NCBI GenBank assembly: GCA_041649575.1
Contig: JBAZMW010000002.1
Coordinates: 148,487-212,486, forward strand
From: Patescibacteria group bacterium
GTDB taxonomy: Bacteria; Patescibacteriota; Patescibacteriia; 2-01-FULL-39-33
Reading direction: 5' to 3'
DNA length: 64,000 nucleotides
The notes under the pieces are model-generated. The model had not been told where the DNA came from, made no database searches, and saw only the letters and a list, made by a program, of their open reading frames with translations. Position numbers and translations under genes: made by a program. This document shows, in pieces, positions 1,024-60,020 of the stretch (position 1 is its first letter; every line of letters starts with the position of its first letter).

Positions 1024-2181
1024 ATGTCTATTTTAGATCAAGTTAGAAAAAATCAATTTCAGGACAATTTAGCCGGTTTTAATCCCGTGTCCACTCTTAA
1101 TACTTTATTTTCCAGTCTAAGCGACAAAGAAAGAGATGTTGTTAGGCGGCGTTTTGGCTTGGGTACGGATCGCAAATATACCTTGGAAGAAATCGGCAAA
1201 CAATACGGCATTACTCGGGAAAGAGTGCGCCAGATAGAGAGTTTAAGCATCAAAAAATTAAAAGAACTTCAAGAATTGAAAGAAGAAATCGAAAAAGCCG
1301 AAAAAGTTGTGGTTCAGCTGTTGGAGCAGTATGGCGGCGTTATGGAACAAGATTTCTTTTTGGAAAAAGTCCTTAATTATTTAGAGGCCCAAGAAAATAT
1401 CGAGAATGTCTTGTTGTTTTTGGCCGAACACATTTTTTCCGACAATGTCTCCAAGGTCCGCCAGGACAAGGAATTCAATAATTTATGGAGAACCGATAGC
1501 GCCGATGTCACCTCGCTGAAGGATATTGTTAATGAGATGGTCCGAGTGATCAGTCAAAACAATCAGCCCGTTCAGCTGCAGAACTTGCTTAACAGTTTCA
1601 AAGACTCCGAATTCTATCAAAAAAACAAAGATAAAATTCTTTCTCGGGCGGTTTTTTTGGAAGCCACCGAAGAGGACGTGGATAAAATTTTAGAGAGTTA
1701 TCTGCGCGCTAGCCGCAAAATCAAATCCAATTTGTTTGACGAGTGGGGCTTGGTCTCTTGGGGCACTGTTCAACCCAAGAAGATCAATGATAAAATATAT
1801 ATGGCCCTAAAGAAAGCCGGCAAGCCTTTGCATTTCACCGAGATTGCCAATTTAATCAACGAAACCAAGTTCGACGATAAAATCGCTTATCCGCCCACCG
1901 TTCATAATGAATTGATTTTGGATGACAAATATGTTTTGGTCGGCCGCGGTATTTACGCTCTGAAAGAATGGGGCTATAATCCCGGCAATGTGGCCGATGT
2001 TTTAGAGGAAGTGTTAAAGGAAAATGGTCCTTTAACCCGCGACGAAGTTATCGAAAAAGTTTTGGCCAAGCGCCAAGTCAAGAAATCAACCGTCTATTTG
2101 TCGCTGATGAACAACAGCCAGATCAAGAAAAACGAGCAGGGCAAATACTATTTACTGGACGATACTGCCAAAAGTTTATAA
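1024..2181 (+). CDS. Sigma-70 region-4-like HTH protein with a C-terminal HARE-HTH-like domain
   Basis: N-terminus ERDVVRRRFGL..YTLEEIGKQYGITRERVRQIE matches the sigma region 4 pattern. The C-terminus (KPLHFTEIANLI...VLVGRGIYALKEWGY) resembles the HARE-HTH of RNAP delta-type proteins. Confidence 0.7.
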   Translation: MSILDQVRKNQFQDNLAGFNPVSTLNTLFSSLSDKERDVVRRRFGLGTDRKYTLEEIGKQYGITRERVRQIESLSIKKLKELQELKEEIEKAEKVVVQLLEQYGGVMEQDFFLEKVLNYLEAQENIENVLLFLAEHIFSDNVSKVRQDKEFNNLWRTDSADVTSLKDIVNEMVRVISQNNQPVQLQNLLNSFKDSEFYQKNKDKILSRAVFLEATEEDVDKILESYLRASRKIKSNLFDEWGLVSWGTVQPKKINDKIYMALKKAGKPLHFTEIANLINETKFDDKIAYPPTVHNELILDDKYVLVGRGIYALKEWGYNPGNVADVLEEVLKENGPLTRDEVIEKVLAKRQVKKSTVYLSLMNNSQIKKNEQGKYYLLDDTAKSL

Positions 2182-2256
2182 ACTTTAATTGTCAGCTAAA
2201 GTTAGCGTTTCAGACGCTAATCTAAGATAGTCTAAAACTCAGGAAGGTGACAAGGT

Positions 2257-3804
2257 ATGGGAATTGAACTTAATTTTGATTTGGCTTCAGTTTGGGAAAG
2301 TTTCGTAATTTTTGCTTCCCAGGATCCAATTACCATTGGCATTCAACTGTTTCTTAAAGGTGGTTGGGTGATTTTTTTAATTGTAATACTGACTGTTTTT
2401 TACGATGCGTGGCTAGATGCCCGCCAAGGCCAGTATGCCGGCAAGTGGCAGCATGTTCTCTTGGCTATCGATATTCCCAAAAACAATGAACAAACACCTA
2501 AGGCGGTAGAAAATCTTTTTGTCGCTTTGGCCGGTACGCAATCCAGCGGCAATTTGATTGATCGTTATTGGCATGGCAAAATACAAGAAAGTTTTTCCTT
2601 CGAAATCGTCAGTCTCGAAGGCTATATCCAATTTTTGGTGCGCACTCCCGTTCATTTCAGGGATCTGGTGGAGGCCGCTGTTTATGCCCAGTATCCGGAA
2701 GCGGAAATCACCGAAGTCGAGGATTACGCCAAGGATTATGCCGGATTGCGTTTTCCCAATGAGCAATATAATTTGTGGGGCACCGAATTGGTTCTGACCA
2801 AGGATTACCCCTATCCCATCAAAACTTATATTGATTTTGAACACACTTTGACCGGCAATTTTTTGGATCCCATGGCGGGGTTATTGGAGATTTTGAGCCG
2901 CTTCGGTCCCGGCGAGCAGCTCTGGCTGCAGCTGGTGGTGACGCCGTGGAAGCCGGACTGGGGCGAAAAAGCCAAAAAAGCCATCAAGACTCTTAAAGGA
3001 GAAAATTATGCTCCGCCGACCACCATAGCCGACAGGATAGCCAAACCAATCGAGTGGTTGGGCACTCAGGCCTTAAATGTCGCTAATGAATTTGCCGGCG
3101 GCGGGGGAGAGGGAGCCAGCAAAAAAGAGGAAGATCAGTGGAAAATGTTCAAACTTACTCCTGGAGAAAGACTGGTTTTTGAAAAAATTCAGCATAAATT
3201 GTCCAAAATTCCTTTCCGGGTGAAATTTCGCATGATTTATTTGGCCAAAAAAGATGTTTTTGCCAAAGGCCGGGGCGTAGCGGCTGTGATTGGCAATATT
3301 CAGCAGTTTAATGTCTCCGACGCCAATGGCTTCAAACCCGGCCCGAAAACCAAGACGGCGGTCGATTATTTTCGCGTTAAGAAAAGATTGGCGGAAAGGC
3401 AAAAAAGGATTTTGCGTCGTTTTATTGGCCGCAGTAATTTTTATGGCGAACCGGTCAGTAATATGTTTTTGAGTACCGAGGAATTAGCCACCCTTTGGCA
3501 TTTCCCGGTGATGACCGTTAAGGCGCCCAGGCTGGAAATGATTGGCTCCAGGCGAGCCGTTCCGCCCACTCGTTTGCCCTACAAAAGTCGTGGTTTTACC
3601 GTTGAAAAAGAGAGAGTTAGAACTTTGGCGGAAAGAGACGGCAGGATTGAAGAAAAAATTGAAGGTTCACTGGAATCTCATCCCCGGTCGCCAAAGTTAC
3701 CAGCGGTAGCGCCGCTGGTTCGGCCGGCCAATTTAACGGACAAATCGACCGAACCGCCGCCGCGAAGAAATCCCGAACCGCCGGCCAACTTACCCACTGT
3801 TTAA
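2257..3804 (+). CDS. Membrane-anchored hypothetical protein, partner of the downstream ATPase; Pro/Arg-rich tail
   Basis: AGGAAGGTGA SD upstream and one N-terminal TM helix (GWVIFLIVILTVF). I recognise no motif. Stop is 12 nt before the next gene. Confidence 0.7.
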   Translation: MGIELNFDLASVWESFVIFASQDPITIGIQLFLKGGWVIFLIVILTVFYDAWLDARQGQYAGKWQHVLLAIDIPKNNEQTPKAVENLFVALAGTQSSGNLIDRYWHGKIQESFSFEIVSLEGYIQFLVRTPVHFRDLVEAAVYAQYPEAEITEVEDYAKDYAGLRFPNEQYNLWGTELVLTKDYPYPIKTYIDFEHTLTGNFLDPMAGLLEILSRFGPGEQLWLQLVVTPWKPDWGEKAKKAIKTLKGENYAPPTTIADRIAKPIEWLGTQALNVANEFAGGGGEGASKKEEDQWKMFKLTPGERLVFEKIQHKLSKIPFRVKFRMIYLAKKDVFAKGRGVAAVIGNIQQFNVSDANGFKPGPKTKTAVDYFRVKKRLAERQKRILRRFIGRSNFYGEPVSNMFLSTEELATLWHFPVMTVKAPRLEMIGSRRAVPPTRLPYKSRGFTVEKERVRTLAERDGRIEEKIEGSLESHPRSPKLPAVAPLVRPANLTDKSTEPPPRRNPEPPANLPTV

Positions 3805-3816
3805 ATTTTCTAAAAA

Positions 3817-5418
3817 ATGACAGAAGAAAGCGTCGAACAAAAAAAAGAAATAACCATTTTTGCCGAAACCAATTTCCGCAACCAGCGGCGCAGTTTTGGT
3901 ATTAAGCGCGATGATCGCCGGCGCCATATGTATATTATCGGTAAGACCGGCATGGGCAAAACCACGCTTTTGGAAAACATGATTATTTCCGATATCATCA
4001 ACGGCGAAGGTTGTTGCTATATTGATCCTCATGGCGATACCGCCGAAAAAATTCTAAATTATATTCCTTCCCACCGGGTTAACGACGTGGTCTATTTCAA
4101 CCCGTCCGATACGGATTTTCCCATCGCTTTCAATATTCTGGAGGCGGTTGACGAAAAAAGCAAGCACTTGATCGCTTCCGGCTTGGTCGGAGTTTTCAAG
4201 AAGCAATTCGCCGACAGCTGGGGCCCGCGTTTGGAATATATTTTAAGAAATGCTATTTTAGCTCTTTTGGATTATCCCGGTAGTACGCTTTTGGGTATCA
4301 TGAGGATTTTGGTTGACGCCGATTATCGCGACAAGGTGATTGAGAAAGTCACTGATCCGGTGGTCAGGTCTTTTTGGACCAATGAATACACCAAATGGAA
4401 CGACCGGGTTTTGCAAGAGGTCATTTCGCCGATTCAAAACAAAGTGGGCCAATTTTTATCTAATTTTTTAATTCGCAACATCGTCGGTCAGGTCAAATCG
4501 ACCATTGATATGCGCGAGATCATCGACAACAAAAAAATAATGATAATGAACTTGTCCAAGGGCCGTATCGGCGAAGACACCATGCAGCTTTTGGGATCGA
4601 TGATTGTCACTAAATTGTATTTAGCGGCCATGAGCCGCGTTGATGTTCCCGAGCAGCAGCGCCAAGATTTTTATCTTTACGTTGATGAGTTCCAAAATTT
4701 TGCTACCGACAGTTTTGCCGATATTTTGTCAGAAGCCAGAAAATATCGCCTGAACCTGGTTATTGCCCACCAGTACATCGAGCAACTGCCGGAGCTGGTG
4801 ACTGCCGCGGTTTTTGGCAACGTGGGCACGCTGATCAGTTTCCGGGTGGGCGCTTCCGATGCCGAGAGCTTGGTGCGGGAATTCACTCCTACCTTTACTG
4901 AAGAAGACCTGGTTAACCTGCCTTCTTTTAATGTCTATCTGAAATTAATGATTGACGGCATTTCTTCCGATCCGTTCTCCGCCACCACTTTACCACCACT
5001 TTTCGACGAAATGATCACCGACAGCAGTGAAAAGGTCATTAAAGTTTCTCGCGAACGTTATGCCCATGGTCGTAAGGTAATAGAAGACAAAATTAACCGC
5101 TGGAGTGGCATTGATCTAAGTGAAAAGTTGGCCGAAGCCACCGTGGGCAAGGGAGTGCCGGTTGTCATTTCCGCTTCCGGCGACGGCGCGAAGAAGAAGA
5201 AAAAAAAGAAGAAAAAGAGCCAGGCCACCGCTGGCAATAATTTTTCCGTGGCCTGCGCTTCCTGCGGCACGCCGGTCAAGCTGAACTTTCAGCCCGATGG
5301 CAAGCGCCCGATTTTTTGCGAGAATTGCCTTAATCAAATGGCCAAAGAAGAAGTCAAGTCCGACGAGGACGATGGCTACCAGAGTTTGGAAGATTTAAAA
5401 AAGATTCTGGGCCGATAA
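3817..5418 (+). CDS. TraD/TraG/VirD4-like (type IV coupling-protein-like) P-loop ATPase with a C-terminal zinc ribbon
   Basis: Walker A GKTGMGKT and Walker B-like YLYVDEFQNF. Lys9 run encoded at about 5190-5217. C-terminal CASCG..x17..FCENC zinc ribbon. Confidence 0.75.
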   Translation: MTEESVEQKKEITIFAETNFRNQRRSFGIKRDDRRRHMYIIGKTGMGKTTLLENMIISDIINGEGCCYIDPHGDTAEKILNYIPSHRVNDVVYFNPSDTDFPIAFNILEAVDEKSKHLIASGLVGVFKKQFADSWGPRLEYILRNAILALLDYPGSTLLGIMRILVDADYRDKVIEKVTDPVVRSFWTNEYTKWNDRVLQEVISPIQNKVGQFLSNFLIRNIVGQVKSTIDMREIIDNKKIMIMNLSKGRIGEDTMQLLGSMIVTKLYLAAMSRVDVPEQQRQDFYLYVDEFQNFATDSFADILSEARKYRLNLVIAHQYIEQLPELVTAAVFGNVGTLISFRVGASDAESLVREFTPTFTEEDLVNLPSFNVYLKLMIDGISSDPFSATTLPPLFDEMITDSSEKVIKVSRERYAHGRKVIEDKINRWSGIDLSEKLAEATVGKGVPVVISASGDGAKKKKKKKKKSQATAGNNFSVACASCGTPVKLNFQPDGKRPIFCENCLNQMAKEEVKSDEDDGYQSLEDLKKILGR

Positions 5419-5434
5419 AGCTATAAGCTAAGAG

Positions 5435-5460
5435 AGCGGCGCAGGAGCCGCTTTTATTTA
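5435..5460 (+). terminator. Intrinsic terminator
   Basis: AGCGGC / GCCGCT stem followed by TTTTATTT. Confidence 0.6.
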
Positions 5461-5486
5461 TCTTTAAAATGTGTTAAATTTTTCAT

Positions 5487-8182: not shown

Positions 8183-8284
8183 AATATATCTTTCTCCAGA
8201 GAGAATGATTCATAGTCCACTTGTGGTGGAAGATGATTGCACAAAAGACAAGGGAACAGGAACCCAAGAAGGAGGCTGTACGTC

Positions 8285-9106
8285 ATGATTAAAAGAACCG
8301 TCGTGGGGCGACTTTTCCGTGATTCTGGCGCATTCGGCCAGTTGACGCCGCCGCCCGGTCTGGAGGGAACCATTGGTGATCCCGATTGGGATTTCTTCTC
8401 GAAGCTGCCGCCGCGTTTTGATTTTCTGGAACTCTGCGATCGGGTCGGCCACGCTTTTGAGATGTCCGAGTCACCCATCTCGCCCTCCGACTGGGAGGAC
8501 CAGTTCGAAAGTCAGAAGGAGCGGCTGCTCGCTCTGTCCGGCTGCTCTGATGGCCATGGCATCGTGCTTTTGCCCGGCCTATTGCCAGTGGCTCCCGGTG
8601 ATTGTATCAGGAAGAGCCTTTTCAATGTCTACATCCCGGCGGTAGAACGCGGCTACGGGGCGATCTATCCCAAGAGGGCTTTTGAGGATTGGTGTGATGG
8701 TCGGGCGGACAGTGTCGCGGCTTTTCCCGGAGTGGGCCACGAGCATCTAATCCACCTCGCCAGTAAAGGCTTGGTCGCCGTCTTCGTCTACATCGCCCAT
8801 TGTATGCGGGCGTGGCCCGTCTCGACCCAGCGCCGACTGCCACGGAAGTTGTTCAAATCGAATTTCTCCTTGGCCGGCGGCTGTGACACGCTTTCCGTCC
8901 TGTCTCTGCACCCTGATATTCTCGCCGCTGGTTTCTGTAGCCCGACGATCGAGCTCAGTGCCTTGCAGACAGATTCGCCGCGCCTCTCGATCTGCGTGGT
9001 GCCAGAAGACAAACGCCTCAGACTCGACATCTGGGGTAATCCCGACGATTTCGCGCCTGAAGCTTCAGGAGGGCTTTCGTTCTGGAAGGAGCAACCTGTC
9101 TTCTAG
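8285..9106 (+). CDS. GC-rich orphan protein, 273 aa, no recognised domain
   Basis: ATG at 8285 has AAGGAGG 9 nt upstream. The long open frame is in GC-rich DNA where other frames are also open, so the frame choice rests on the SD and on length. Confidence 0.6.
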   Translation: MIKRTVVGRLFRDSGAFGQLTPPPGLEGTIGDPDWDFFSKLPPRFDFLELCDRVGHAFEMSESPISPSDWEDQFESQKERLLALSGCSDGHGIVLLPGLLPVAPGDCIRKSLFNVYIPAVERGYGAIYPKRAFEDWCDGRADSVAAFPGVGHEHLIHLASKGLVAVFVYIAHCMRAWPVSTQRRLPRKLFKSNFSLAGGCDTLSVLSLHPDILAAGFCSPTIELSALQTDSPRLSICVVPEDKRLRLDIWGNPDDFAPEASGGLSFWKEQPVF

Positions 9107-34002: not shown

Positions 34003-34968
34003 ATGAAGAAATCAAATCTGCCTATTCTCAGTCAGTTTTCGGACTTTCTGGCCTATTGCGAGGTAGAAAAAGGTCTTAGCCCCATTTCTACCAGAAATTA
34101 CCACAATTTTTTGAGAATGTTCGAAGGTTGGCTAAAAATCAAACATTTAACGCAGCTCAAGCCGCATGAGCTCACTCCAGAGCATGTCTGGGACTACCGG
34201 CTTTATCTTTCCCGTCGGCAAGACCGCTCTGGTCGCTATATCAAAAAAACCACTCAAAATTATTATTTAATCGCCCTTAGGAACCTTTTGAACTACTTCG
34301 CCGATAAAGATATTATCTCTTTGCCTTCAGAAAAAGTTAAATTACCAAAATTAACCGAAAAAGACAAAGCGATAAAGTTTCTAAAGTTTGATCAGATAGA
34401 AAAGTTATTACAGGTGCCGGATGTCACCACTCTTGAAGGCCTAAGGGACAGAACGATTCTCGAAATTCTCTTCTCTACTGGTATGCGGGTTTCGGAGTTA
34501 ACGTCGCTTAATATCAAACAGTTTGATCGCCTAGCTTTACTAAAAAATAATTTTTCTGATCAAGAGTTAAGCATCGCTGGTAAAGGTGGTAGAACAAGAA
34601 CGGTTTATTTTTCTCATCGAGCTTTGGGTTGGCTGGCTAGATACTTAAAAAACAGAAACGACCTCTATCCCCCGCTTTTTATTAACTATCGTCCCCATAA
34701 TGACAGAGATGACGAGCACCGTTTAACGCCTCGTTCGGTTGAAAGATTGGTAAAAAGACACACCGTGATGGCCGGGTTGCCTGTTGATGCCACGCCGCAC
34801 ACCCTGCGTCATAGCTATGCCACGGATTTATTGGATCAGGGAGCAGATTTGCGCAGTGTCCAGGAGCTTTTGGGGCATAAAAATATTGTTACCACTCAAA
34901 TTTATACTCACGTCACCAATCAAAAGCTTCGCTCCATTCATAAAAAATTTCATAGTGGCAATCATTGA
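34003..34968 (+). CDS. xerC: Tyrosine recombinase XerC/XerD family
   Basis: TPHTLRHSYATDLLDQGADLRSVQELLGHKNIVTTQIYTHV. Confidence 0.88.
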   Translation: MKKSNLPILSQFSDFLAYCEVEKGLSPISTRNYHNFLRMFEGWLKIKHLTQLKPHELTPEHVWDYRLYLSRRQDRSGRYIKKTTQNYYLIALRNLLNYFADKDIISLPSEKVKLPKLTEKDKAIKFLKFDQIEKLLQVPDVTTLEGLRDRTILEILFSTGMRVSELTSLNIKQFDRLALLKNNFSDQELSIAGKGGRTRTVYFSHRALGWLARYLKNRNDLYPPLFINYRPHNDRDDEHRLTPRSVERLVKRHTVMAGLPVDATPHTLRHSYATDLLDQGADLRSVQELLGHKNIVTTQIYTHVTNQKLRSIHKKFHSGNH

Positions 34969-39294: not shown

Positions 39295-39984
39295 CTACTT
39301 TTTTAGATAATTCACGATGATTTTGGCCTGGCTCTGGTTTTCTTTGTCGTCCTTAAAAGACATCAGGCCAAAAATGTCGCCTTTCCAAAAGCCCAAATTA
39401 ATTTCATAATCTGCCAGATTTTCCTTAAACTCAAAGCCGCTTTCCTTCAGCTTGTTTTTGTAGTAGCCGGCCACCTCTTCTTTCGGCTGGCTTATCTGTT
39501 TCCAGGACAAAGAGGTTGTTTCCATTTTTTTCAGTTCCGGCGAGCTTAGGGCTTTTTTTAATTCCTCCGGCGTAAAACCGCGCGACAAGTCTATTTTATC
39601 GGCAAAACTTTGGCTTAATTTAGCTTTCAAATCATTGGATAAATAAGCCAAAGTCGGCTTAAGCAGCCAGTTTGGTAAAAGGCCCATGATTTTCAAAAGT
39701 TTTTCCTTGCCTTCTGGCGTCTGCAGTTCAATCTCGGCTTTTTCCGGCAGATAAATGGCCAGTTCTTCCGGGAAATCACCCGGCAACTGGTTGACTTTTT
39801 CCACCACCGGAGAGACCGCCAATCTGACAGCGGCAAAAAGAGTAATGAAGATAATTACCAACGCCAAAATTAAACAACCGAAAAATTTGATAAATTCTCG
39901 GCTTCTATTTTTTTCCGGATTGTTCAGGTTGAGTTCCTGCCAATTTTTCATTATTTCCTGGCTAATTTTATTATATTCTAGCAA
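39295..39984 (-). CDS. Membrane-anchored hypothetical protein
   Basis: One TM helix (FGCLILALVIIFITLFAAV). No recognised domain. Confidence 0.65.
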   Translation of the reverse strand: MLEYNKISQEIMKNWQELNLNNPEKNRSREFIKFFGCLILALVIIFITLFAAVRLAVSPVVEKVNQLPGDFPEELAIYLPEKAEIELQTPEGKEKLLKIMGLLPNWLLKPTLAYLSNDLKAKLSQSFADKIDLSRGFTPEELKKALSSPELKKMETTSLSWKQISQPKEEVAGYYKNKLKESGFEFKENLADYEINLGFWKGDIFGLMSFKDDKENQSQAKIIVNYLKK

Positions 39985-40026
39985 ATACCAGCCTTTTTTG
40001 CAAAAGTAAATCAGTCTTGTTATAAT
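39975..40026. promoter_or_regulatory. Divergent promoter pair sharing one palindromic -35 hexamer TTGCAA
   Basis: TTGCAA at 39998-40003. Plus strand: 17 nt to TATAAT (40021-40026). Minus strand: 17 nt to TAGAAT (reverse complement of 39975-39980). Confidence 0.5.
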
Positions 40027-40030
40027 AAAA

Positions 40031-40240
40031 GTGGTTCATTTCCTCGAGACCCGAACTGGTCATTTGGGTCTCACCGCTCCGGTGGGGAAGCGAAACCAGC
40101 GCCTTCGCTTCCCCTCTGGCTTAACCAAAGCACCTTGGTAGCACTTCCCGGGTCTACTGAAAGCCGCATCCAGGCAAGCATTAGACCCGTTCCCGCTGTG
40201 GCGGCCGATGGCATCAGTCATCAGCCGTCCTTTTTGTTTA
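40031..40240 (+). ncRNA. Candidate GC-rich structured RNA R1 (~210 nt, class unknown)
   Basis: Has its own promoter and terminator (40200-40240). Perfect stems at 40046-52/40066-72, 40084-94/40104-14 and 40150-56/40182-88. I found no SD-preceded ORF. Confidence 0.45.
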
Positions 40241-40289
40241 TCCACAGTTAAATATTTATAACCAAAGAAATCTTTGCTATAATAAAATC

Positions 40290-40622
40290 ACATTGGACAT
40301 GGGGCTTGTCAAATGGCCCTGCAACCAGTCCGAACGGAGAACGAGCCATGAGAACAAAGACAACGAAGCGAGCAGCAGTGGGCGTGATGGTCGATGGCAC
40401 CGGCGGAACAGCGTACTTGGCGACGTCCTGACCTAACGAGAACGGTCGGACTGGGCGTCAAAGAAGTTCTCCGAGACGCTTGACTCAACCCAAGCGTCTC
40501 GCCGCACCTTAACTCTCCTCGGAGAGTTGTGACTATAGGTTTTCACGCTTTGACAAAGCGTGGACATCCCCCTAAGGTGAGCAGTCGGTTGCTGACAGGT
40601 AGCCGACTCTCTTTTTGTTTTT
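40290..40622 (+). ncRNA. Candidate GC-rich structured RNA R2 (~330 nt, class unknown)
   Basis: Promoter TTTATA, 17-nt spacer, TATAAT (40255-40283). 9-bp long-range helix 40325-33/40446-54. Hairpins at 40473-40500, 40511-28 and 40544-62. Terminator at 40583-40622. Confidence 0.45.
40348..40431 (+). CDS. Possible 27-aa mini-ORF inside R2
   Basis: MRTKTTKRAAVGVMVDGTGGTAYLATS with GGAG 8 nt upstream. It is enclosed by the long-range helix. Coding status is uncertain. Confidence 0.2.
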   Translation: MRTKTTKRAAVGVMVDGTGGTAYLATS

Positions 40623-40767
40623 AAAAAATTTAGTTATCCACAGGTACTATTTATTTCTTTAAAAAATAGTTATATAATGAAAGTGCGGAAGGTATTTACG
40701 ATAGCGTACAACCGAAGCAGGCCATCGGCCAAACGATCGGCCAAACGAAAGAAAGGTGGGACGGAAG

Positions 40768-41259
40768 ATGAGAAAGTTCGTGTTTTGTACGGTAGTACTG
40801 GCGTTCGCGTTTGTGATGATTCCGGCGACGAATACTCCGGCATACGCGACGCAACTCGATCAAGGCAAGGCAGTGGCGACGGCTCCGACGACGATGGGGA
40901 CGACGCAGCAGGACGTGCAGACGGCGATGAAGAGCAACCTGGTCCTCGACGGCACCGGGCAGAAAGTCGCTGAAGTGATGAAGGCGCCGACTCTTGACTC
41001 CGGACGAGTGATTGCGCAGACGGCGACGACGAAGACGGCACGCGAAGAGCAGACGAAGATCACGGCGAAGAGTGACACGGTTGTAACGGCGAAGATCGAA
41101 GCGCAAGGCATGGGCGAGCAGATGGCAGCGGCTGGCGAAGATGACGCTGGCACGATCATCGTGGCGACGAAGAGTGACACCTATGCGACGAGAATCGAGG
41201 GCCGTATCGCTCACGACGCGGACGCGACCTTCAATGCGAACGTTCTGATCATCGGCTAA
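40768..41259 (+). CDS. GC-rich secreted Thr/Ala-rich protein, 163 aa
   Basis: AAGGTGGG SD. Signal peptide MRKFVFCTVVLAFAFVMIPATNTPAYA. Internal repeat CGAAGAGTGACAC at about 41069 and 41168. Confidence 0.6.
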   Translation: MRKFVFCTVVLAFAFVMIPATNTPAYATQLDQGKAVATAPTTMGTTQQDVQTAMKSNLVLDGTGQKVAEVMKAPTLDSGRVIAQTATTKTAREEQTKITAKSDTVVTAKIEAQGMGEQMAAAGEDDAGTIIVATKSDTYATRIEGRIAHDADATFNANVLIIG

Positions 41260-41349
41260 CCACGCGGGCAGCGCCGAAAGTCAGAACGAGTAGTACCTTG
41301 GATACACAACCGATACCGGCCAACAGTCGGATCGGCCACCTCCAGAGTT

Positions 41350-41388
41350 GGGTCAGCTGGCAACGGCGACCCTCTCTTTTTTTGTTTT
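41350..41388 (+). terminator. Intrinsic terminator
   Basis: GGGTC.GC / GC.GACCC stem followed by TCTCTTTTTTTGTTTT. Confidence 0.65.
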
Positions 41389-41396
41389 GAAAAAAT

Positions 41397-41425
41397 TTGC
41401 CAAAATTTTATAAATTTTTTATACT
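41397..41425 (+). promoter_or_regulatory. Promoter: TTGCCA, 17-nt spacer, TATACT
   Basis: TTGCCA at 41397-41402 and TATACT at 41420-41425. Confidence 0.5.
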
Positions 41426-41431
41426 ATAAGC

Positions 41432-41756
41432 AAGCGGTTCCTGCTGTGGGAACCGTGCACATTGGGTCAACGGGTCAACCGGAGGGTACAAGCAATATGA
41501 AAAAGGAAATGAGAGCGCAGGGTTTGGTCGTGGCGAAATGGAAGTAGGCTAGACCGTAGCAAGGCAACTTAGCGTTGTTGGGCGGAGGCCCCAACTAACA
41601 GTGGGCCTCCGCTGAATCTTTCCCTCGCTTGAGCGGGGTGCTGGTATATCCTTCTCTGAAGGGGTTCCCCCGTTGGGAAGTGTTGCCCATTCAACGCCTC
41701 CTGACCGCACAGGCTGCAATTTGTCGCAAGACGAAGGGCAGCCTGAATTATTTTTT
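41432..41756 (+). ncRNA. Candidate GC-rich structured RNA R3 (~320 nt) with a possible 16-aa mini-ORF at 41497-41547
   Basis: Hairpins at 41435-55 and 41582-41612 (10 bp). Terminator CAGGCTGC / GCAGCCTG followed by T6. Mini-ORF MKKEMRAQGLVVAKWK has GGAGGG 10 nt upstream. Confidence 0.4.
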
Positions 41757-41781
41757 GCTATACTTAATTTATACTGAATTT

Positions 41782-42657
41782 ATGAGAGCAGCCAAATTTT
41801 ACAAAAAATCAGGGGCTAATGTTAAATGTCAGCTTTGTCGGCATTTTTGTCTGATTGCCCCAGCCAAGTTCGGCCTCTGCGGCATGAGGAAGAATATCGA
41901 CGGCCGGCTTTATTCTCTTAATTACGGTAAAATCATTGCCAGCCAGATTGACCCGATCGAAAAAAAACCGCTCTATCATTTTTTGCCAGGCAGTTTTGCT
42001 TATTCTTTGGCTTGCCCCGGCTGTAATTTTAAATGCCTTAATTGCCAAAATTCCGATCTTTCCCAAATCACCCCGGCTTTACAAAAGGCCGTTGATTCTT
42101 TGCCGGAAACCAGGCCGGAAGAGATTGTCGAGGCGGCCTGGGAAAACAATTGCCCGTCAATCGCTTATACCTATACCGAGCCCACCATTTTTGCCGAGTT
42201 TGCTCTCGACTGCATGGAGCTGGCCAGAGACAGTAATCTAAAAAATATCTGGGTTTCCAATGGCTATCTGTCGCCCGGTTGTCTGGAGGCCATCAGCCCC
42301 TATCTTGACGCCATTAATATTGATTTGAAATTTTTTAGCGATAAAAATTATCAAAAAATTTGCGGCGCTCGCCTAAAACCAGTCTTGGATAATCTGGTTG
42401 CTTTTAAAACAGCCAAAATTCATTTGGAAATCACCACTTTAATCATTCCCTCACTTAATGATAGCGATGAAGAGTTAACCGCTCTGGCAGAGTTTATTTA
42501 TCAAAAATTGGGCGACGACACGCCCTGGCATCTGGGCGCCTTTCACCCCGCTTACAAATTAAAAAATTTACCGGCTACGCCGACAGAAACCATCAAGCGG
42601 GCCCAGGCAATCGGGAAAAATATCGGCCTGAAATATGTTTATCCGGGAAATGTTTGA
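41782..42657 (+). CDS. AmmeMemoRadiSam-system-type radical SAM enzyme (PFL-activase-like)
   Basis: KCQLCRHFC...GLCGMRKN...DPIEKKPLYHFLPGS...GCNFKCLNCQN. ATG at 41782; the track's TTG at 41629 would run through the upstream terminator. Confidence 0.8.
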   Translation: MRAAKFYKKSGANVKCQLCRHFCLIAPAKFGLCGMRKNIDGRLYSLNYGKIIASQIDPIEKKPLYHFLPGSFAYSLACPGCNFKCLNCQNSDLSQITPALQKAVDSLPETRPEEIVEAAWENNCPSIAYTYTEPTIFAEFALDCMELARDSNLKNIWVSNGYLSPGCLEAISPYLDAINIDLKFFSDKNYQKICGARLKPVLDNLVAFKTAKIHLEITTLIIPSLNDSDEELTALAEFIYQKLGDDTPWHLGAFHPAYKLKNLPATPTETIKRAQAIGKNIGLKYVYPGNV

Positions 42658-42753: not shown

Positions 42754-44109
42754 ATGAGAAAAAACTACCAATTAGCGGTATTATTTTGTTTTTTGCTTTT
42801 TTTGCTTTTACCCTTTACGGTTGGGGCGGCCGATTTCGATCCCGATTATCTGATTTCTGATACCGAATTGGCCAATCACAATTCTTTGGACCTGTCTGAT
42901 ATTCAAAGATTTTTGGACAAAAGAAATGGCACGCTCAAGGGTTATGTCACCCTTGATAAAGAAGGCAACCTAAAAACCGCCGTCCAGGCTTTTTTCGAGG
43001 TGGCGCAGAAGTGGCTGATCAACCCCAAATATTTGTTGGTGTTGGTACAAAAAGAGCAAAGCTTACTCGAAGATACCAATCCCTCCCAGGGCCAATATGA
43101 CCGCGCTACCGGTTATGGTTGTCCCGATACCGGCGGTTGCGACGACCGCTGGAAGGGCTTCTATCGCCAGGTAAATTCCGCCGCGGCTCAAACCCGCTAT
43201 TATCTGGACAATATTAATGAGTTTACTTATCAGCCGGGAAAGGCCTATAATATTGACGGGCAGTCTGTCACTCCCAAAAACACCGCCACCGCCGGTTTGT
43301 ACAATTATACCCCCCATCTTCACGGCAATCAGAATTTCTGGAACCTTTGGAACCAGTATTTTGGCAAAAAATGGCCTAATGGCGCCCTGTTGCAAGCCGA
43401 AGGCGACGCTAGCAAGGTTTATTTGATTGAAAACGAAGAAAAACGCGAAATTATATCCAAAGCGGTTTTTGCCTCCCGCTTCGACAGTAAAAAAATAATC
43501 ACTGTCGGCCAGGAAGATCTGGATTCTTATGACTCTGGCGTGCCCATAAAATACCTCAATTTTTCCCTGCTTAAAAGCAGCCGCGGCGACATTTACATGA
43601 TCGTTGACGACCAAAAAAGAAAAATTGCCAGTCAGGAAGTTTTCAAAAAAATCGGTTTTATGGAAGATGAGGTGATTCCGGCGGATGACAGCGAGCTGGG
43701 CCTTTATAAAGACGGTCCCGAGATTACCAGCTATACCCTTTATCCCGCCGGGACGCTTTTGCAAGACAGCCAGACTAAACAAATTTTTTATGTCATCAGC
43801 GGCAAGAAGCGGCCAATAATCAATAAAGAAATCCTGGCTTTTAATTTTAACGGCTTGCCGGTCAAAAAAGTTTCTCCCGTCGAACTGGAATCGTACCGCT
43901 CTGGCAATCCCGTCACCTTGCCCGATGGTGAACTGGTCAAAATCAAGGGAGCCAATACGGTTTACGTGATTTCCAATGGCAAACGTCTGCCGATTTTCAA
44001 CGCCAAGATTTTCGAAAAAATGAATTATAAATGGACTAACGTCAAAACCGTTTCCAAAGAGACCCTGGAAGTTCATGAGCTGGGTCAAACCATCACCGGC
44101 GATTGGTAA
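42754..44109 (+). CDS. Secreted protein with a lysozyme/PG-hydrolase-like N-terminal region and four C-terminal repeat modules
   Basis: Signal peptide, then LVQKEQSLLED...ATGYGCPD. Four modules of the form hhYhIxxxxKRxIxxxxhF. Confidence 0.6.
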   Translation: MRKNYQLAVLFCFLLFLLLPFTVGAADFDPDYLISDTELANHNSLDLSDIQRFLDKRNGTLKGYVTLDKEGNLKTAVQAFFEVAQKWLINPKYLLVLVQKEQSLLEDTNPSQGQYDRATGYGCPDTGGCDDRWKGFYRQVNSAAAQTRYYLDNINEFTYQPGKAYNIDGQSVTPKNTATAGLYNYTPHLHGNQNFWNLWNQYFGKKWPNGALLQAEGDASKVYLIENEEKREIISKAVFASRFDSKKIITVGQEDLDSYDSGVPIKYLNFSLLKSSRGDIYMIVDDQKRKIASQEVFKKIGFMEDEVIPADDSELGLYKDGPEITSYTLYPAGTLLQDSQTKQIFYVISGKKRPIINKEILAFNFNGLPVKKVSPVELESYRSGNPVTLPDGELVKIKGANTVYVISNGKRLPIFNAKIFEKMNYKWTNVKTVSKETLEVHELGQTITGDW

Positions 44110-47134: not shown

Positions 47135-48424
47135 TCAAGCTCGTTTTGTCAATTTATGGCTGATAGGCAGCCCAACCAGCAGGATTAAAATTATATCCAA
47201 ATAAAATTCTTCGCGCATCAAATAATTGGTATAAATGCTCATAACCGTCACGAAGCTGAAATAAGCAAAAAGCATAACCGACAAAACAGTCGGTTTTTTG
47301 GTCACCCAGTTATAAATAACAGCCAAAAGCACTCCCCAAAAAATTGCCGCCACGATTATCCCCAGCCAGCCGAAATCTACCCAATAATTGAACAAAAAAG
47401 TCGCTGTCACCCACCAGGGCAAAAACATTTCTTTCCAAGCAATGGCGCCGTTTAGCTCCGGAGCGCCGAAAATTTTTAAGAACGAATTGAAAGTCGATAA
47501 ACCGTAACCGCCCCAGTGCCAATTAGCATAACTGAAATAATCGGTAGCCCTGAAAAACGCTTGCAGATTAAAGGCGGGAATCAAATAAAGCGGAATCAGG
47601 AAGTCGAGTTGGGCGGGCAGATTAAGTTTTGACAGGTCGGCCAAGTAGGTAAAAGCGTTGTAATCGACATCCGCATAATAATCGCGGTAAGTGATAAAAT
47701 GTCTGAACATCGGTATGGCCACAGAGATCACCAAGACCAAAATAAGCACCACCATCGAAGCCACAGCGATTTTGCGCCAATTGATTTTTTTAATCTTTAT
47801 AATCAGATAACCGAAATAGCTCATCAGTATCGGTAAAATTATCACCAGGCGCGAGGCATAAAGCGACAAGAGCAAAAAGCCCAACAAAATGTTAATAAAA
47901 ATTATTATTTTGACCACCCGGCTTCTGCGGCCGCTCAAGAGGAAGATAAAAGCCAGAGGAATAATAATTCTGGGCAGTAGCGCGGCATATTCCCAAAGTC
48001 CGAAAACTTGTTTGTTGATAATAAAACGCATTTTGTCGGGAACCGACGAGAGTATCGGCAAAGTGCCAAAACGGCTGAAAATATAAGCGTTAGCCGCCAA
48101 ACTCAGAATTGTTAAAATTAGAATCGTTATTAAAAATATTTTACTATTGGTCGTCTCTATTATCTGGCCAGCTTTAATTTTTCGGTTAGCCAACCGGCTG
48201 AAAATCACGTAACTCAAATAAAAAAGTAAAAAAAATAAGGCTAAAATCAGCCAGAATTTGCCGCTCCAGGCCGCTTCATACGGACTAAGCCGCAACTGCG
48301 CTACACCAATCGCCAGGAGCCACAGCGACAAGAGCAATTTGGCCGGGGAAAATTTATTGTTGCCAAAAAAATAGCTCAAACCGACGGCCATGCCCAAGAT
48401 TATAAAAACAAAAAATAGAACCAT
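47135..48424 (-). CDS. Polytopic membrane protein, O-antigen/oligosaccharide repeat-unit polymerase (Wzy)-like
   Basis: About 10-12 TM segments. Located in the GT2/Wzx cluster. Confidence 0.5.
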   Translation of the reverse strand: MVLFFVFIILGMAVGLSYFFGNNKFSPAKLLLSLWLLAIGVAQLRLSPYEAAWSGKFWLILALFFLLFYLSYVIFSRLANRKIKAGQIIETTNSKIFLITILILTILSLAANAYIFSRFGTLPILSSVPDKMRFIINKQVFGLWEYAALLPRIIIPLAFIFLLSGRRSRVVKIIIFINILLGFLLLSLYASRLVIILPILMSYFGYLIIKIKKINWRKIAVASMVVLILVLVISVAIPMFRHFITYRDYYADVDYNAFTYLADLSKLNLPAQLDFLIPLYLIPAFNLQAFFRATDYFSYANWHWGGYGLSTFNSFLKIFGAPELNGAIAWKEMFLPWWVTATFLFNYWVDFGWLGIIVAAIFWGVLLAVIYNWVTKKPTVLSVMLFAYFSFVTVMSIYTNYLMREEFYLDIILILLVGLPISHKLTKRA

Positions 48425-52964: not shown

Positions 52965-54116
52965 TTAGTTTTGATAAGGCACGAATTGGCCGTTTTTGAT
53001 TTGTTGCATCATAGAAGTCATGTGGGAGTCGCCATTACTGTCGATAGTGATGGGTCCACTGACGCCATCATAATTTTTTACCCCATACAGGTAGTTTTTT
53101 ACGCCATCAGGATTATAGCCGCTACTCTTTATGGCGTTTAGTAACAGATTAGTGCCATCATAGGAATTGGCCACGGCGCTCATAATCGGCGGATCTTGAT
53201 TGTAGGCGGAGATGTATTTTGTTTTGAGGTCTTTGACTTTTTGATTTTGATCATCTAGGGCGGAGGTGATAAAAATTGCTCCTTCGGCGGCGCTGTCGCC
53301 GGCTGTCACCACTTCTTTGACACCAAAATTGTCAGAGCCAATAATTTGAGCATTAATTCCCAGCTCTCTGGCTTGTTTGGCGATCAATCCCCCTTCGCTG
53401 CCATAACTTATAATCACTAATGATGTCGGATTTTTTTCTTTTATTTTTGTCAGGGCGGTTCGGAAGTCAGTCGCTTCCGGCAAGTAGGTTTCGGCATCTA
53501 AAATTTTTCCGCCGCTAGCTTCATAGGTGCTTTTAAAATTATCGAAAAAACCGACGCCGTAGTCATTGCTGGCATAAATGACGGCCACCTCTGGAGTGTT
53601 TAACTGGTGGTAAAGAAAATCGGCCAGATTAGCGCCTTGCACCGCGTCAGAAATGCAAGTCCGAAAAATATAATTGCCAGCTTGGGAGATTTTGGCAGCT
53701 GAAGCCAGCGTGGTCAGTAGGATAACCTTACTTTGTTCAGCAATGGGAGCTGTGGCCAAGACCGACCCGGAACAGCCAACCATGGTGGCTTTGACTTTAT
53801 CAACACTGATTAATTTATTAAAAGCAGTGACGGCCTCGGTTTTGTCGCAAGTCTTATTATCCTCAAAAATCAATTGGATTTGTTGGCCATTTATTCCGCC
53901 GCGATCGTTCCATTCTTTGACGGCGATTTCTATACCACCCTTCATTGATCCACCCCAATTAACTAAGTCACCAGTCAGCGGCGCAATCACCCCGATTTTT
54001 ATAGGCTCGGTATCTTGCGAATTAGCTTTGTTGGTGAGTGCCAAGGCATAGCCAATGATGGCGATAATCACCACCAGAGCAATTATCAGCCAGATAATTT
54101 TTGTTTTCTTTGACAT
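52965..54116 (-). CDS. LIV-type (type I periplasmic) substrate-binding protein, paralog 1
   Basis: N-terminal TM anchor, then IKIGVIAPLTGD.....G, typical of Leu/Ile/Val-binding proteins. Confidence 0.8.
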   Translation of the reverse strand: MSKKTKIIWLIIALVVIIAIIGYALALTNKANSQDTEPIKIGVIAPLTGDLVNWGGSMKGGIEIAVKEWNDRGGINGQQIQLIFEDNKTCDKTEAVTAFNKLISVDKVKATMVGCSGSVLATAPIAEQSKVILLTTLASAAKISQAGNYIFRTCISDAVQGANLADFLYHQLNTPEVAVIYASNDYGVGFFDNFKSTYEASGGKILDAETYLPEATDFRTALTKIKEKNPTSLVIISYGSEGGLIAKQARELGINAQIIGSDNFGVKEVVTAGDSAAEGAIFITSALDDQNQKVKDLKTKYISAYNQDPPIMSAVANSYDGTNLLLNAIKSSGYNPDGVKNYLYGVKNYDGVSGPITIDSNGDSHMTSMMQQIKNGQFVPYQN

Positions 54117-54215
54117 GGTTCTTGGGATATTTTATTTGTCTTGAATTCAAGAATAATGAAATATGGGACTTATCGTCAATTTATATTACAGAAATTTAGT
54201 GATATTTTAGCTAAT

Positions 54216-54244
54216 TTGACAAATATTTAGCTATATTATATAAT
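54216..54244 (+). promoter_or_regulatory. Promoter TTGACA, 17-nt spacer, TATAAT, with phased TTTAGCTA repeats
   Basis: TTGACA at 54216-54221 and TATAAT at 54239-54244. TTTAGCTA at 54206 and 54226, and TTTAGTGA at 54196. Confidence 0.55.
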
Positions 54245-54269
54245 ATCTGTAAATATTTTTTACAACAAT

Positions 54270-55001
54270 ATGCTGGACAAAATTATTGATTATTTCAATT
54301 TAGAAGAAAAAGAAGCCAAAGTCTATCTGGCTGCTCTGGAATTGGGCAATTCTAAGGTCAGTGAAATAGCCAAAAAAGCCGGTTTAAATCGCATTACGGC
54401 TTATGAAATTTTGAAACGATTAAGACAAAAGGGGTTGGCCGTGAGCTTAACTAGAAATAACGTTTTGACTTTTCGGGTGATTGATCCTGAAAAAGTTATT
54501 AAGAAAATGGAAAGCAAGTTATCCTTGTCTCGGGAGCTTTTGCCGGCGCTGGTGCTACTAAAAAATAACAGCGGCAAAAAGCCGAAGATCGAGTACTTTG
54601 ACGGTCGTGAAGGATTAAGGGCTTTGTGCAACGATTCCTTAAACTGTCAAGAAAAAATAATTTATGATTTGGCGGAACCCACCAATCTGTTGAAAACTAT
54701 CGGCGAGGATTTTTTTAATTCTTTTGTCAGACAAAGAGTCAAAAAAGGAATAAAGGTCAAGTTGTTGCTGCCTAAAAACAAAGAGAACAAAAAATATCTC
54801 GGGGTAGTAAAAAGAGATTTAAGAGAATTAAGATTTATTGATGATGATTTGTATCCCAATGAGTTTTATATTTATGACAATAAAGTCGCCATACTCTCCT
54901 TCTCCGGCAAGATGGGAGTATTAATTGAAGACGAGGAAATCGCCAAATCAATGAAGTCCATCTGGAGATTCTTATGGAATCACTCTGACAAAAATTTTTA
55001 A
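54270..55001 (+). CDS. TrmB-family transcriptional regulator
   Basis: N-terminal winged HTH: FNLEEKEAKVYLAALELGNSKVSEIAKKAGLNRITAYEILKRL. Confidence 0.8.
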   Translation: MLDKIIDYFNLEEKEAKVYLAALELGNSKVSEIAKKAGLNRITAYEILKRLRQKGLAVSLTRNNVLTFRVIDPEKVIKKMESKLSLSRELLPALVLLKNNSGKKPKIEYFDGREGLRALCNDSLNCQEKIIYDLAEPTNLLKTIGEDFFNSFVRQRVKKGIKVKLLLPKNKENKKYLGVVKRDLRELRFIDDDLYPNEFYIYDNKVAILSFSGKMGVLIEDEEIAKSMKSIWRFLWNHSDKNF

Positions 55002-55052
55002 CTTAAAACACCCGCCAATGAGGCGGGTGTTTTAAGAATATGTGGTTTTTAA

Positions 55053-56102
55053 CTAATTTACCTTCTCCAGATACATCGGAATAACAATATCATTATTTGT
55101 AATATCTTTGGCTACTCCAGTCACGCCACTGACTTCTTTTTTGTTGGTCAGACAGCTTTCAATACTATCTTTGGGACAAGTGGCCAAAAGGTTGACAATA
55201 TCAAAACCAAAGGCGGCCACGAAGTTGGGTTCTTTGCCATATTTGGCTTTGTATCTGGTTTTGAACTGCTCGCTATTACCGGGAATAGAAAAAGCAAATT
55301 GATTGGTGTAGAAAGTCATTTTGGGAGCTTTGGCTTGCGTTTCCGGATCGGATTGGACATTAGAGACTTCAACTATCGGGATATTAAACTTTAATTCTTC
55401 TATTTTTTTCAAAATGCCCAGTGATTCGCTTGGTGGTGTTGGGACGAATAACAGAGCTTCCGGTCCAGCGTCTTTGGCCTTACTAACGATGGTGGAAAAG
55501 TCAGTCGTGTTGGGAACATATGATTCCATGAAGACTATCTTTTTGCCGGATTCATCACAGAGTTGTTTGATTTTGTCAGCCACCGATTGGGCATACTCGT
55601 CTTTTCTGTAGATGACTGCTATTTTCTTGACGTTTTTGAGCGGTGAAATGTCTGATTCAAATGATGGCGTGGCAAAATGACTGGCGTCGGTATAATATCT
55701 GAAAGCATAATCATTAGTAATATTGTTAGCCGCGCTTTGAGTGATAACCATGGGAATTTTGTCCTCTTTGGCGAGTGAGGCCAGCGGCACGCTGACAATA
55801 CTAAGAGCTGTCACAAAAACATCCGGCTTTTGGAGTTTTAGTTTTTGATAGGCGGTCAAACCATCGGCGGCAGCGCCTTTGCTATCCTCATAGGTGACGG
55901 CAAGATTGGGGTGGTCTTCCAGCGCTAGATCCATGCCGTTCTTGACACTTTCGCCCCAGATGGCCGATGGGCCGCTTAGAGCCAAAATGGCTCCGATTTG
56001 GGTTTTATCATCACTGGTAGCAGCTTTATTGCCCAAGCCACAGCCGGCTAACACTACGCTTGCCATTAAGGCAACGACAATAATCAAAAATTTTGTTTTC
56101 AT
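55053..56102 (-). CDS. LIV-type substrate-binding lipoprotein, paralog 2
   Basis: Lipobox VLAGCG, then IGAILALSGP. Confidence 0.8.
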   Translation of the reverse strand: MKTKFLIIVVALMASVVLAGCGLGNKAATSDDKTQIGAILALSGPSAIWGESVKNGMDLALEDHPNLAVTYEDSKGAAADGLTAYQKLKLQKPDVFVTALSIVSVPLASLAKEDKIPMVITQSAANNITNDYAFRYYTDASHFATPSFESDISPLKNVKKIAVIYRKDEYAQSVADKIKQLCDESGKKIVFMESYVPNTTDFSTIVSKAKDAGPEALLFVPTPPSESLGILKKIEELKFNIPIVEVSNVQSDPETQAKAPKMTFYTNQFAFSIPGNSEQFKTRYKAKYGKEPNFVAAFGFDIVNLLATCPKDSIESCLTNKKEVSGVTGVAKDITNNDIVIPMYLEKVN

Positions 56103-56126
56103 ACGACGTTTTATTATTGTTTAGTT

Positions 56127-57254: not shown

Positions 57255-57277
57255 GATTTTACTATATTATTATTATA

Positions 57278-58015: not shown

Positions 58016-58020
58016 TATTA

Positions 58021-59127: not shown

Positions 59128-59144
59128 AAAATTTTGTATTTTAG

Positions 59145-60017: not shown

Positions 60018-60020
60018 AGA

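Follow-up and report, generated by a model that had tools for sequence, protein, structure and literature searches.

A VirD4-type coupling ATPase and a DUF8128 membrane protein as the two halves of a split coupling protein in Patescibacteria

Introduction

Coupling proteins of type IV secretion systems (T4SSs), such as TrwB of plasmid R388, VirD4 and DotL, are built on a P-loop nucleotide-binding domain with a helical insertion, carry an N-terminal two-helix transmembrane (TM) domain of their own and are encoded with a relaxase or a T4SS. In Patescibacteria, which hold a large share of bacterial diversity and for whose epibiotic lifestyle the T4SS is essential, a survey of 3,035 genomes counted 5,713 homologues of the VirD4-like type IV coupling protein (T4CP), spread over 2,918 of the genomes, and VirB4 in 2,417 (Quinonero-Coronel et al. 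2025, PMC12102498). Of these T4CP homologues, just 148 are close to virB4; relaxases are rare, and exaptation is raised as a possibility (PMC12102498). Here, a locus of this kind is described from a stretch of 64,000 nucleotides (nt), called the window below, of a Patescibacteria group bacterium (assembly GCA_041649575.1, contig JBAZMW010000002.1, positions 148,487 to 212,486, forward strand), in which a gene for a membrane protein of 515 amino acids (aa) belonging to the family DUF8128 (PF26449) is followed by a gene for a 533-aa VirD4-type ATPase.

Two further systems are close enough for comparison. In Ca. Southlakia epibionticum ML1, the T4CP SEML1_0293, which has an N-terminal extension of ~400 aa, was non-essential in transposon sequencing (Wang et al. 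2023, Table S1/S2, PMC10633639). SEML1_0294, directly upstream of it, contains Sigma70_r4 and HARE-HTH domains, is annotated as 'RpoS' and is essential. Another T4CP-like gene, SEML1_0142, is essential too; it encodes 1019 aa, of which aa 381-800 form the P-loop domain, and a small essential hypothetical gene precedes it (PMC10633639). The other system is CedD of the Ced DNA import apparatus of Sulfolobales (PMC11868833), which is chromosomal, lies outside mobile elements and moves DNA.

The window pair resembles TrwB, VirD4 and DotL in its P-loop domain, with significant sequence and fold matches, but its anchor is a separate protein with a large domain like the N-terminal domain (NTD) of VirB4. 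Together with the Patescibacterial T4CPs including SEML1_0293, it belongs to one core family enriched in Patescibacteria (the window ATPase shares ~51% identity with the corresponding half of the fused Saccharibacteria protein P0476), and like them it is far from virB4, has no relaxase nearby and has the same gene with sigma-70 region 4 and HARE helix-turn-helix (HTH) domains directly upstream. It differs from SEML1_0293 in being two genes and in what each half has acquired: a disordered tail ending in PPxNLP on the membrane half, and a basic linker plus CxxC-x17-CxxC zinc ribbon on the motor half. CedD has a comparable layout of TM segment, VirB4-NTD-like domain and FtsK/HerA-superfamily ATPase, but it is archaeal, a single polypeptide and essential for DNA import, with an ATPase of the HerA/CedB clade.

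An original prediction, made from the letters of the window, had called the ATPase an orphan coupling protein. It does lie far from T4SS genes, but orphans had already been reported for Patescibacteria, most of whose genomes have a T4SS elsewhere (PMC12102498). Earlier surveys gave only the abundance of T4CP homologues and their distance from virB4, and the N-terminal DUF8128 domain, the VirB4-like fold and the HTH linkage are described in neither PMC12102498 nor PMC10633639. New here are the identity of the DUF8128/VirB4-NTD-like partner, the fission and fusion relationship, the zinc-ribbon variant and the conserved HTH neighbour.

The split coupling protein

The 515-aa and 533-aa genes are one T4CP in gene-fission form, split at the domain boundary. 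Their features, by position in the window, are as follows.

2257-3804, + strand: DUF8128 (PF26449) membrane subunit, 515 aa, equal to the N-terminal half of fused T4CP-type proteins
2335-2403, + strand: single TM helix, aa ~27-49 (Kyte-Doolittle maximum 2.2; long helix at aa 24-62 in the AlphaFold2 model)
2443-3591, + strand: conserved alpha/beta domain, aa ~63-445, with a VirB4-N-terminal-domain-like fold, probably cytoplasmic
3775-3801, + strand: EPPANLPTV, extreme C-terminal motif of DUF8128, after a disordered Pro/Arg-rich linker (aa ~446-506)
3817-5418, + strand: coupling ATPase of the VirD4/TrwB type, 533 aa, lacking a TM domain, equal to the C-terminal half of the fused proteins
3940-3963, + strand: Walker A GKTGMGKT, aa 42-49 (G42, K43, T44, G45, G47 and K48 invariant)
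4672-4701, + strand: Walker B region YLYVDEFQNF, aa 286-295 (Y288 to A296 invariant)
5191-5217, + strand: Lys9 run, aa 459-467, inside a variable, disordered basic linker (aa ~432-472) of low predicted local distance difference test score (pLDDT)
5254-5328, + strand: CxxC-x17-CxxC zinc ribbon CASC-x17-CENC, aa 480-504 (PF23477, TIGR04272)

Gene linkage was examined in the best 80 of >584 species-representative genomes carrying a DUF8128 relative. The ATPase gene is directly downstream of the DUF8128 gene, on the same strand, in 73 of the 80 species with a median gap of 6 nt, so that the pair is linked across genomes, as had been set as a test of the partnership; the seven exceptions comprise two contig ends and five loci with a glycosyltransferase gene after DUF8128. 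In the window, the two open reading frames (ORFs) are both on the + strand, in the same frame and 12 nt apart, and the gap holds two in-frame TAA stops. Joining of the two ORFs by read-through or recoding was considered and rejected: they are in frame in the window, but the frame offsets over the 73 loci are distributed 28:23:22, with no conserved frame relation.

In other lineages, the two halves are one protein. A database search with a Bacillus plasmid homologue found single proteins with PF26449 plus PF10412 or PF01935 in Saccharibacteria (P0476, 937 aa), Gracilibacteria (P0494), Bacillaceae plasmids and other metagenome-assembled genomes (MAGs). The DUF8128 profile matches their N-terminal halves (E = 3e-58 for P0476, 6e-47 for P0482, 5e-19 for P0494 and 1e-13 for B. 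subtilis), the window ATPase matches their C-terminal halves with 49-57% identity in the Patescibacterial and 28-34% in the plasmid proteins, and the halves join exactly where the DUF8128 ORF ends and the ATPase ORF begins. EPPxNLP stands 10-15 residues before the motor domain in the fused proteins, and P0476 also has the N-terminal TM helix.

Because the halves are fused in other lineages, the pair represents a gene-fission form of one T4CP subfamily and not a new two-gene system. The proposal of a two-gene translocation module was right in that the partnership is genuine (adjacent in 73/80, fused elsewhere), but it is not an autonomous, novel module: it is a split T4CP, and a third gene upstream belongs to the unit. 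The separate membrane subunit in the sampled ABY1/Paceibacteria-type genomes is natural evidence that the halves work as a complex. The pair lies on the chromosome among housekeeping genes, is inherited vertically and shows strong conservation.

The ATPase

Three T4CP models of Pfam match the ATPase above cut-off: PF10412 (TrwB_AAD_bind; 44.6 bits, E = 1e-11, cut-off 20.5), PF12696 (TraG-D_C; 24.2 bits, cut-off 22) and PF02534 (T4SS-DNA_transf; 21.6 bits, cut-off 20.1). TrwB and DotL were its best PDB sequence matches and the sole solved structures found by sequence. When family profiles were compared using hhalign, the ATPase aligned to TrwB over 262 columns with 95.6% probability (E = 1e-8), whereas its alignment to VirB4/TrwK was limited to the Walker A region. 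On the strength of the Pfam, PDB and TrwB profile matches, the ATPase is VirD4-type, closer to T4CP than to VirB4. These results bear out its first description as a TraD/TraG/VirD4-like P-loop protein of 533 aa with GKTGMGKT and YLYVDEFQNF, both of which are found at their reported sites. The NCBIfam T4CP equivalogs (TraD, CD1115, TrbC) all score far below their cut-offs, and the ATPase is not a member of those subfamilies; a close relationship to the Gram-positive T4CP TrsK (CD1115 family) was rejected, as the BLASTP comparison was not significant.

The Walker A motif begins at aa 42, and no hydrophobic window that would make a TM segment is present in the ATPase. In the predicted structure, whose pLDDT is only 64, core strands lie on both sides of a helical block (aa ~113-216), and the alignment to TrwB spans 310 residues. 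The ATPase has >8,000 homologues. When the gene was compared with its neighbours over 46 loci, its median identity was 61% versus 51% for SecF and 40% for MnmA, and it ranked top of the three in 46/46, so that it is the most conserved gene among these compared housekeeping neighbours.

The zinc ribbon is recognised by PF23477 (zf_Tbcl_2; E = 3e-9) and reaches 35.1 bits with TIGR04272, just below the cut-off of 36 bits. It was counted in 48 of 67 complete ATPase neighbours, and C480, C483, C501 and C504 are invariant among the homologues that bear it. The CxxC-x17-CxxC domain binds zinc in small proteins of M. mazei (PMC12704099). The lysine run and the ribbon behind it, both pointed out in the original prediction, are present, but the ribbon is frequent and not universal, and the run is incidental: similar K/R runs occur in only some homologues, within a basic linker that varies by lineage, which rules out the Lys9 run as a conserved functional element. 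In many homologues, the C-terminal tail is long and disordered and holds short conserved motifs. Distant homologues with 22-29% identity are encoded by Bacillus phages (Bacillus phage G gp156 and others), where they are annotated as MsbA-like or as 'DNA helicase or translocase'.

The DUF8128 membrane partner

The 515-aa partner has >2,174 homologues, and an exhaustive profile search gave 3,211 clusters at 50% identity. PF26449 is carried by the exact protein and by nearly all of its homologues according to precomputed annotations; the model is absent from the local Pfam copy, and the local Pfam and NCBIfam scans gave no match for the partner. It had been described as a single-TM protein with a Pro/Arg-rich tail, in keeping with the one hydrophobic segment at aa ~27-49, and as being without a recognisable motif, which does not hold: it belongs to a named though uncharacterised family and has the fold of the VirB4 N-terminal domain. 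A full-text literature search found no paper mentioning DUF8128.

The alignment of the partner has four regions, namely the TM helix, a core of ~380 residues, a variable disordered linker and an invariant terminal PPxNLP. The core ends with a signature EELATLWHFP and a PPTRLPY motif (aa 436-442). The terminal EPPANLPTV is kept in 65 of 80 homologues with P509, L512 and P513 invariant, and would serve as a docking peptide for the ATPase. The charge distribution (positive-inside rule) and the fused homologues suggest an N-out, C-in topology with the domain in the cytoplasm.

The likeness to the VirB4 N-terminal domain is one of fold. A search of PDB sequences with the DUF8128 profile was empty, and on this result together with the non-significant hhalign comparisons given under Interpretation, DUF8128 was rejected as a sequence homologue of that domain. 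Unlike VirB4 (TrwK), to which it has no significant sequence similarity, DUF8128 is associated with an ATPase that is VirD4-like and not VirB4-like. No relation was detectable to the TrsD family (TrsD/TraD of pGO1/pSK41), another group of VirB4-NTD-like proteins, for which a position beside virB4 has been reported in Patescibacteria: the hhalign comparisons with TrsD of pSK41 gave E = 0.09 and 0.66, the window gene is also not beside virB4, and an assignment as TrsD-like was rejected.

Relatives on plasmids

The family is abundant on plasmids, with 534 plasmid records. In B. subtilis FUA2231, a fused protein of 885 aa is followed by genes for a replication-relaxation protein, conjugal transfer proteins and a VirB4-like ATPase, and in Embleya NBC_00896, a fused protein of 812 aa lies among PrgI, an ATPase, a relaxase-like protein and NlpC/P60. 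These Bacillaceae and actinobacterial fusions resemble the window pair in having a DUF8128-like N-domain (hhalign probability 96.7% for B. subtilis) and an ATPase half homologous to the window ATPase (28-34% identity, E = 1e-42 to 1e-72). They differ from it in being plasmid-borne, fused and located in bona fide conjugation-type loci, beside genes for replication-relaxation (relaxase-like), VirB4-like, PrgI and cell-wall hydrolase proteins; the zinc ribbon is missing, and in the B. subtilis form the TM helix as well. A Natrinema plasmid carries a split pair, the DUF8128 half of which matched with 94.9% probability in hhalign. Because of these plasmid gene contexts, the module is read as the T4CP of an MPF-FATA-like conjugation apparatus in the plasmid hosts. 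That T4CPs of monoderm and archaeal conjugative plasmids share this architecture may link the two ATPase families of T4SSs structurally.

The closest plasmid match is a solitary ATPase of 395 aa on Sulfitobacter mediterraneus plasmid NZ_CP081110.1 (L083, 5986-7173), with 40% identity. It stands without a DUF8128 partner, with transposases and a recombinase on its flanks, and may be a fragment gained by horizontal transfer. No relatives of DUF8128 were found in IMG/VR viral contigs, and the phage homologues of the ATPase are distant; an origin from a phage or mobile element was rejected.

The upstream gene and the genomic context

The gene upstream of the pair and the putative signals around the three genes are as follows.

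895-924: terminator-like hairpin, 3' of secF and 5' of the promoter-like site
930-958, + strand: promoter-like site TTGACA-17-TATAAT with TG extension, 12/12 matches (putative, by consensus match only)
1024-2181, + strand: sigma-70 region 4/HARE-HTH gene, 385 aa (Pfam, NCBIfam and PDB sigma region 4 matches)
5432-5465, + strand: terminator-like GC-rich hairpin followed by a T-run, directly 3' of the ATPase stop codon (putative, by consensus match only)

In the 385-aa protein, sigma-70 region 4 is at aa 29-81 and a winged helix of the HARE-HTH/RNAP-delta type at aa ~256-316. The gene is directly upstream of DUF8128 in 56 of the 80 species loci. One Saccharibacteria genome, with an otherwise unrelated neighbourhood, has an orthologue of it (33% identity, E = 2e-58) 47 nt ahead of the fused T4CP gene. 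SEML1_0294, the Southlakia epibionticum orthologue, is essential, in contrast to the adjacent T4CP gene SEML1_0293 (PMC10633639). A reciprocal search from the HTH protein gave 72 informative metagenomic loci, in 59 of which DUF8128-T4CP is directly downstream (56 as one ORF), with another 9 within 4 kb (68/72 together). The HTH gene is a conserved partner of the DUF8128/ATPase unit, linked across Patescibacterial classes. The 75-nt spacer between the HTH gene and DUF8128 holds an inverted repeat, TTAGCGT-TTCAG-ACGCTAA, at 2186-2226, with no T-run after it.

Upstream of the locus are the housekeeping genes for S2, EF-Ts, GAPDH and SecDF, and downstream are genes for a CarS-like protein, DAGK, MnmA, AlaRS, ribosomal proteins, RpoA, several aminoacyl-tRNA synthetases, an AddA-like helicase, transporters and glycosyltransferases. 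The GC content of the locus is ordinary (0.457-0.459). The Pfam scan of the window covered 45 ORFs (the two of the pair, three neighbours and 40 of the remaining ORFs of >=150 aa) and found no VirB4, relaxase, pilin or other T4SS gene, as originally noted; ~10 of these ORFs had no family and smaller genes were outside the scan, so that small divergent T4SS or pilin components could escape it. The 10 kb upstream of the window are also housekeeping, and the locus is not inside a conjugative element. There is no second copy or paralogue of the pair genes and no further CxxC-x17-CxxC motif in the window.

Interpretation

The preferred reading, to which a probability of roughly 60% is given, is that the two proteins are T4CP subunits that deliver a DNA-linked substrate through a T4SS encoded elsewhere. 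DUF8128 would tether the motor to the membrane on the cytoplasmic side, holding the ATPase through its domain and its C-terminal PPxNLP peptide, and the ATPase, by analogy with TrwB, would be a hexameric translocase driven by nucleoside triphosphates. The VirB4-like N-domain may dock the assembly onto the inner-membrane platform of a T4SS of the MPF-FATA type, which most Patescibacteria encode elsewhere, and the basic linker and zinc ribbon, possibly with the HTH protein, would engage a nucleic-acid or nucleoprotein substrate. DNA-linked transfer would thus be the role of the pair. Since Southlakia epibionticum can do without the fused orthologue, the function is probably accessory and unnecessary for growth, and DNA exchange or uptake fits that dispensability better than does the essential role of the T4SS in host dependence.

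Several observations weigh against this reading. Within the 74 kb of DNA examined around the pair (the window plus 10 kb upstream), T4SS, relaxase and pilus genes were not found. Comparisons of two DUF8128 profiles, one of them broadened, with TrwK and TrsE using hhalign were not significant (E = 0.03-0.6). In the five species of the glycosyltransferase type, DUF8128 is intact and keeps the PPxNLP tail, and four of them also have the upstream HTH gene, but the ATPase does not follow; in these species, the motor gene must be elsewhere or lost. T4CP homologues occur in ~500 more genomes than VirB4, and some copies may act without a T4SS. The zinc ribbon is missing in 19 of the 67 relatives, and conservation of the motor as strong as that seen here is unusual for a dispensable accessory function.

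The main rival, possible but unlikely, is a DNA pump independent of any T4SS, working alone or with partners from outside such a system and guided by the HTH protein and the zinc ribbon, either for import as in CedD/CedB or for chromosome handling as in FtsK; the excess of T4CP over VirB4 genomes, the housekeeping context, the absence of a relaxase, the very high conservation of the motor and the linkage to a protein of DNA-binding type would all suit it. The architecture matches that of CedD, which Saccharolobus requires to import DNA (PMC11868833), but the weak NCBIfam match of the window ATPase to CedD (NF053655) reaches only 25.3 bits against a cut-off of 600 and spans aa 22-84 around Walker A, which makes CedD an architectural analogue only. 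The closest relatives outside the candidate phyla radiation (CPR) are inside conjugative T4SS gene sets beside relaxase-like genes, no channel protein is encoded beside the pair, and the dispensable fused orthologue speaks against chromosome segregation. A more far-reaching reading is doubtful, more so than the pump: 1024-5418 could encode a Patescibacteria-wide, relaxase-independent DNA-handling machine in which the essential HTH protein binds chromosomal or incoming DNA (or RNA polymerase) and passes it to a membrane-anchored T4CP with an ancestral VirB4-like N-domain. If true, it would be the missing DNA-substrate arm of the essential CPR T4SS, or a Ced-like import route for organisms unable to make nucleotides, and a living intermediate between VirB4 and VirD4.

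The remaining explanations are less likely than the pump. Coupling of protein effectors to the Patescibacterial T4SS, as by DotL and VirD4, is improbable: relaxases are absent from most Patescibacteria, whose T4SS is thought to be co-opted for non-conjugative roles, DotL is among the best structural and sequence matches, and the long tails with short motifs in many homologues would fit, but the T4SS is essential for epibiotic growth and SEML1_0293 is not, so that the essential SEML1_0142 is the better candidate. Moreover, three features (zinc ribbon, basic linker and linked HTH protein) speak for nucleic acid, and the nearest plasmid relatives stand beside relaxase-like genes. That the pair is a remnant or cargo of an integrated conjugative or other mobile element might be argued from the plasmid abundance of the family, the solitary Sulfitobacter copy among transposases and a XerC/D-like integrase in the window (34003-34968); this is very improbable, being effectively refuted by the conserved vertical synteny of secDF, HTH gene, DUF8128 and ATPase, which recurs in 74/80 species. 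The integrase is 29 kb off, the GC content is ordinary with housekeeping genes on both flanks, the ATPase is more conserved than SecF, and relaxase or mating-pair formation genes and viral-contig relatives are absent from the material searched. Least probable of all is an anti-phage defence ATPase of the MADS mad8 or DndH/DptH type. The PADLOC match to mad8 (E = 2.9e-17), the weak matches to HerA and DndH and the match of the upstream protein to the sigma domain of MzaA reflect only common folds, that of the TraD/HerA ATPases and that of sigma region 4; DUF8128 has no PADLOC match, no methyltransferase, nuclease or other defence partner is adjacent, and defence islands lack class-wide synteny, whereas this locus is conserved.

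Delivery of a DNA-linked substrate through a T4SS encoded elsewhere is the preferred reading, and SEML1_0293 and SEML1_0294 make a coupling-protein role in the CPR experimentally approachable in Southlakia epibionticum.

Other observations

Many Patescibacterial MAG records are titled 'uncultured Gammaproteobacteria bacterium' (binchicken co-assemblies), a placeholder that is misleading for taxonomy. An RNA feature search of the window found only one tRNA-Gln, far from the locus. Sizeable ORFs of the window had no Pfam family, at 42754-44109 (+), 47135-48424 (-), 30084-31110 (+), 33043-33900 (+) and 39295-39984 (-), and such ORFs may include divergent envelope, pilus or T4SS components. The segment 8001-10000 has a GC content of 53.5% versus ~44% around it and holds a 289-aa ORF without a family (8237-9106) and an acyltransferase gene; a second GC-rich segment is at 40001-42000 (51%). 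On the - strand, 52965-60887 encodes four tandem substrate-binding paralogues of the Peripla_BP_6 family with two ABC ATPases and two permeases of the branched-chain type, a large transporter outlay for a reduced genome.

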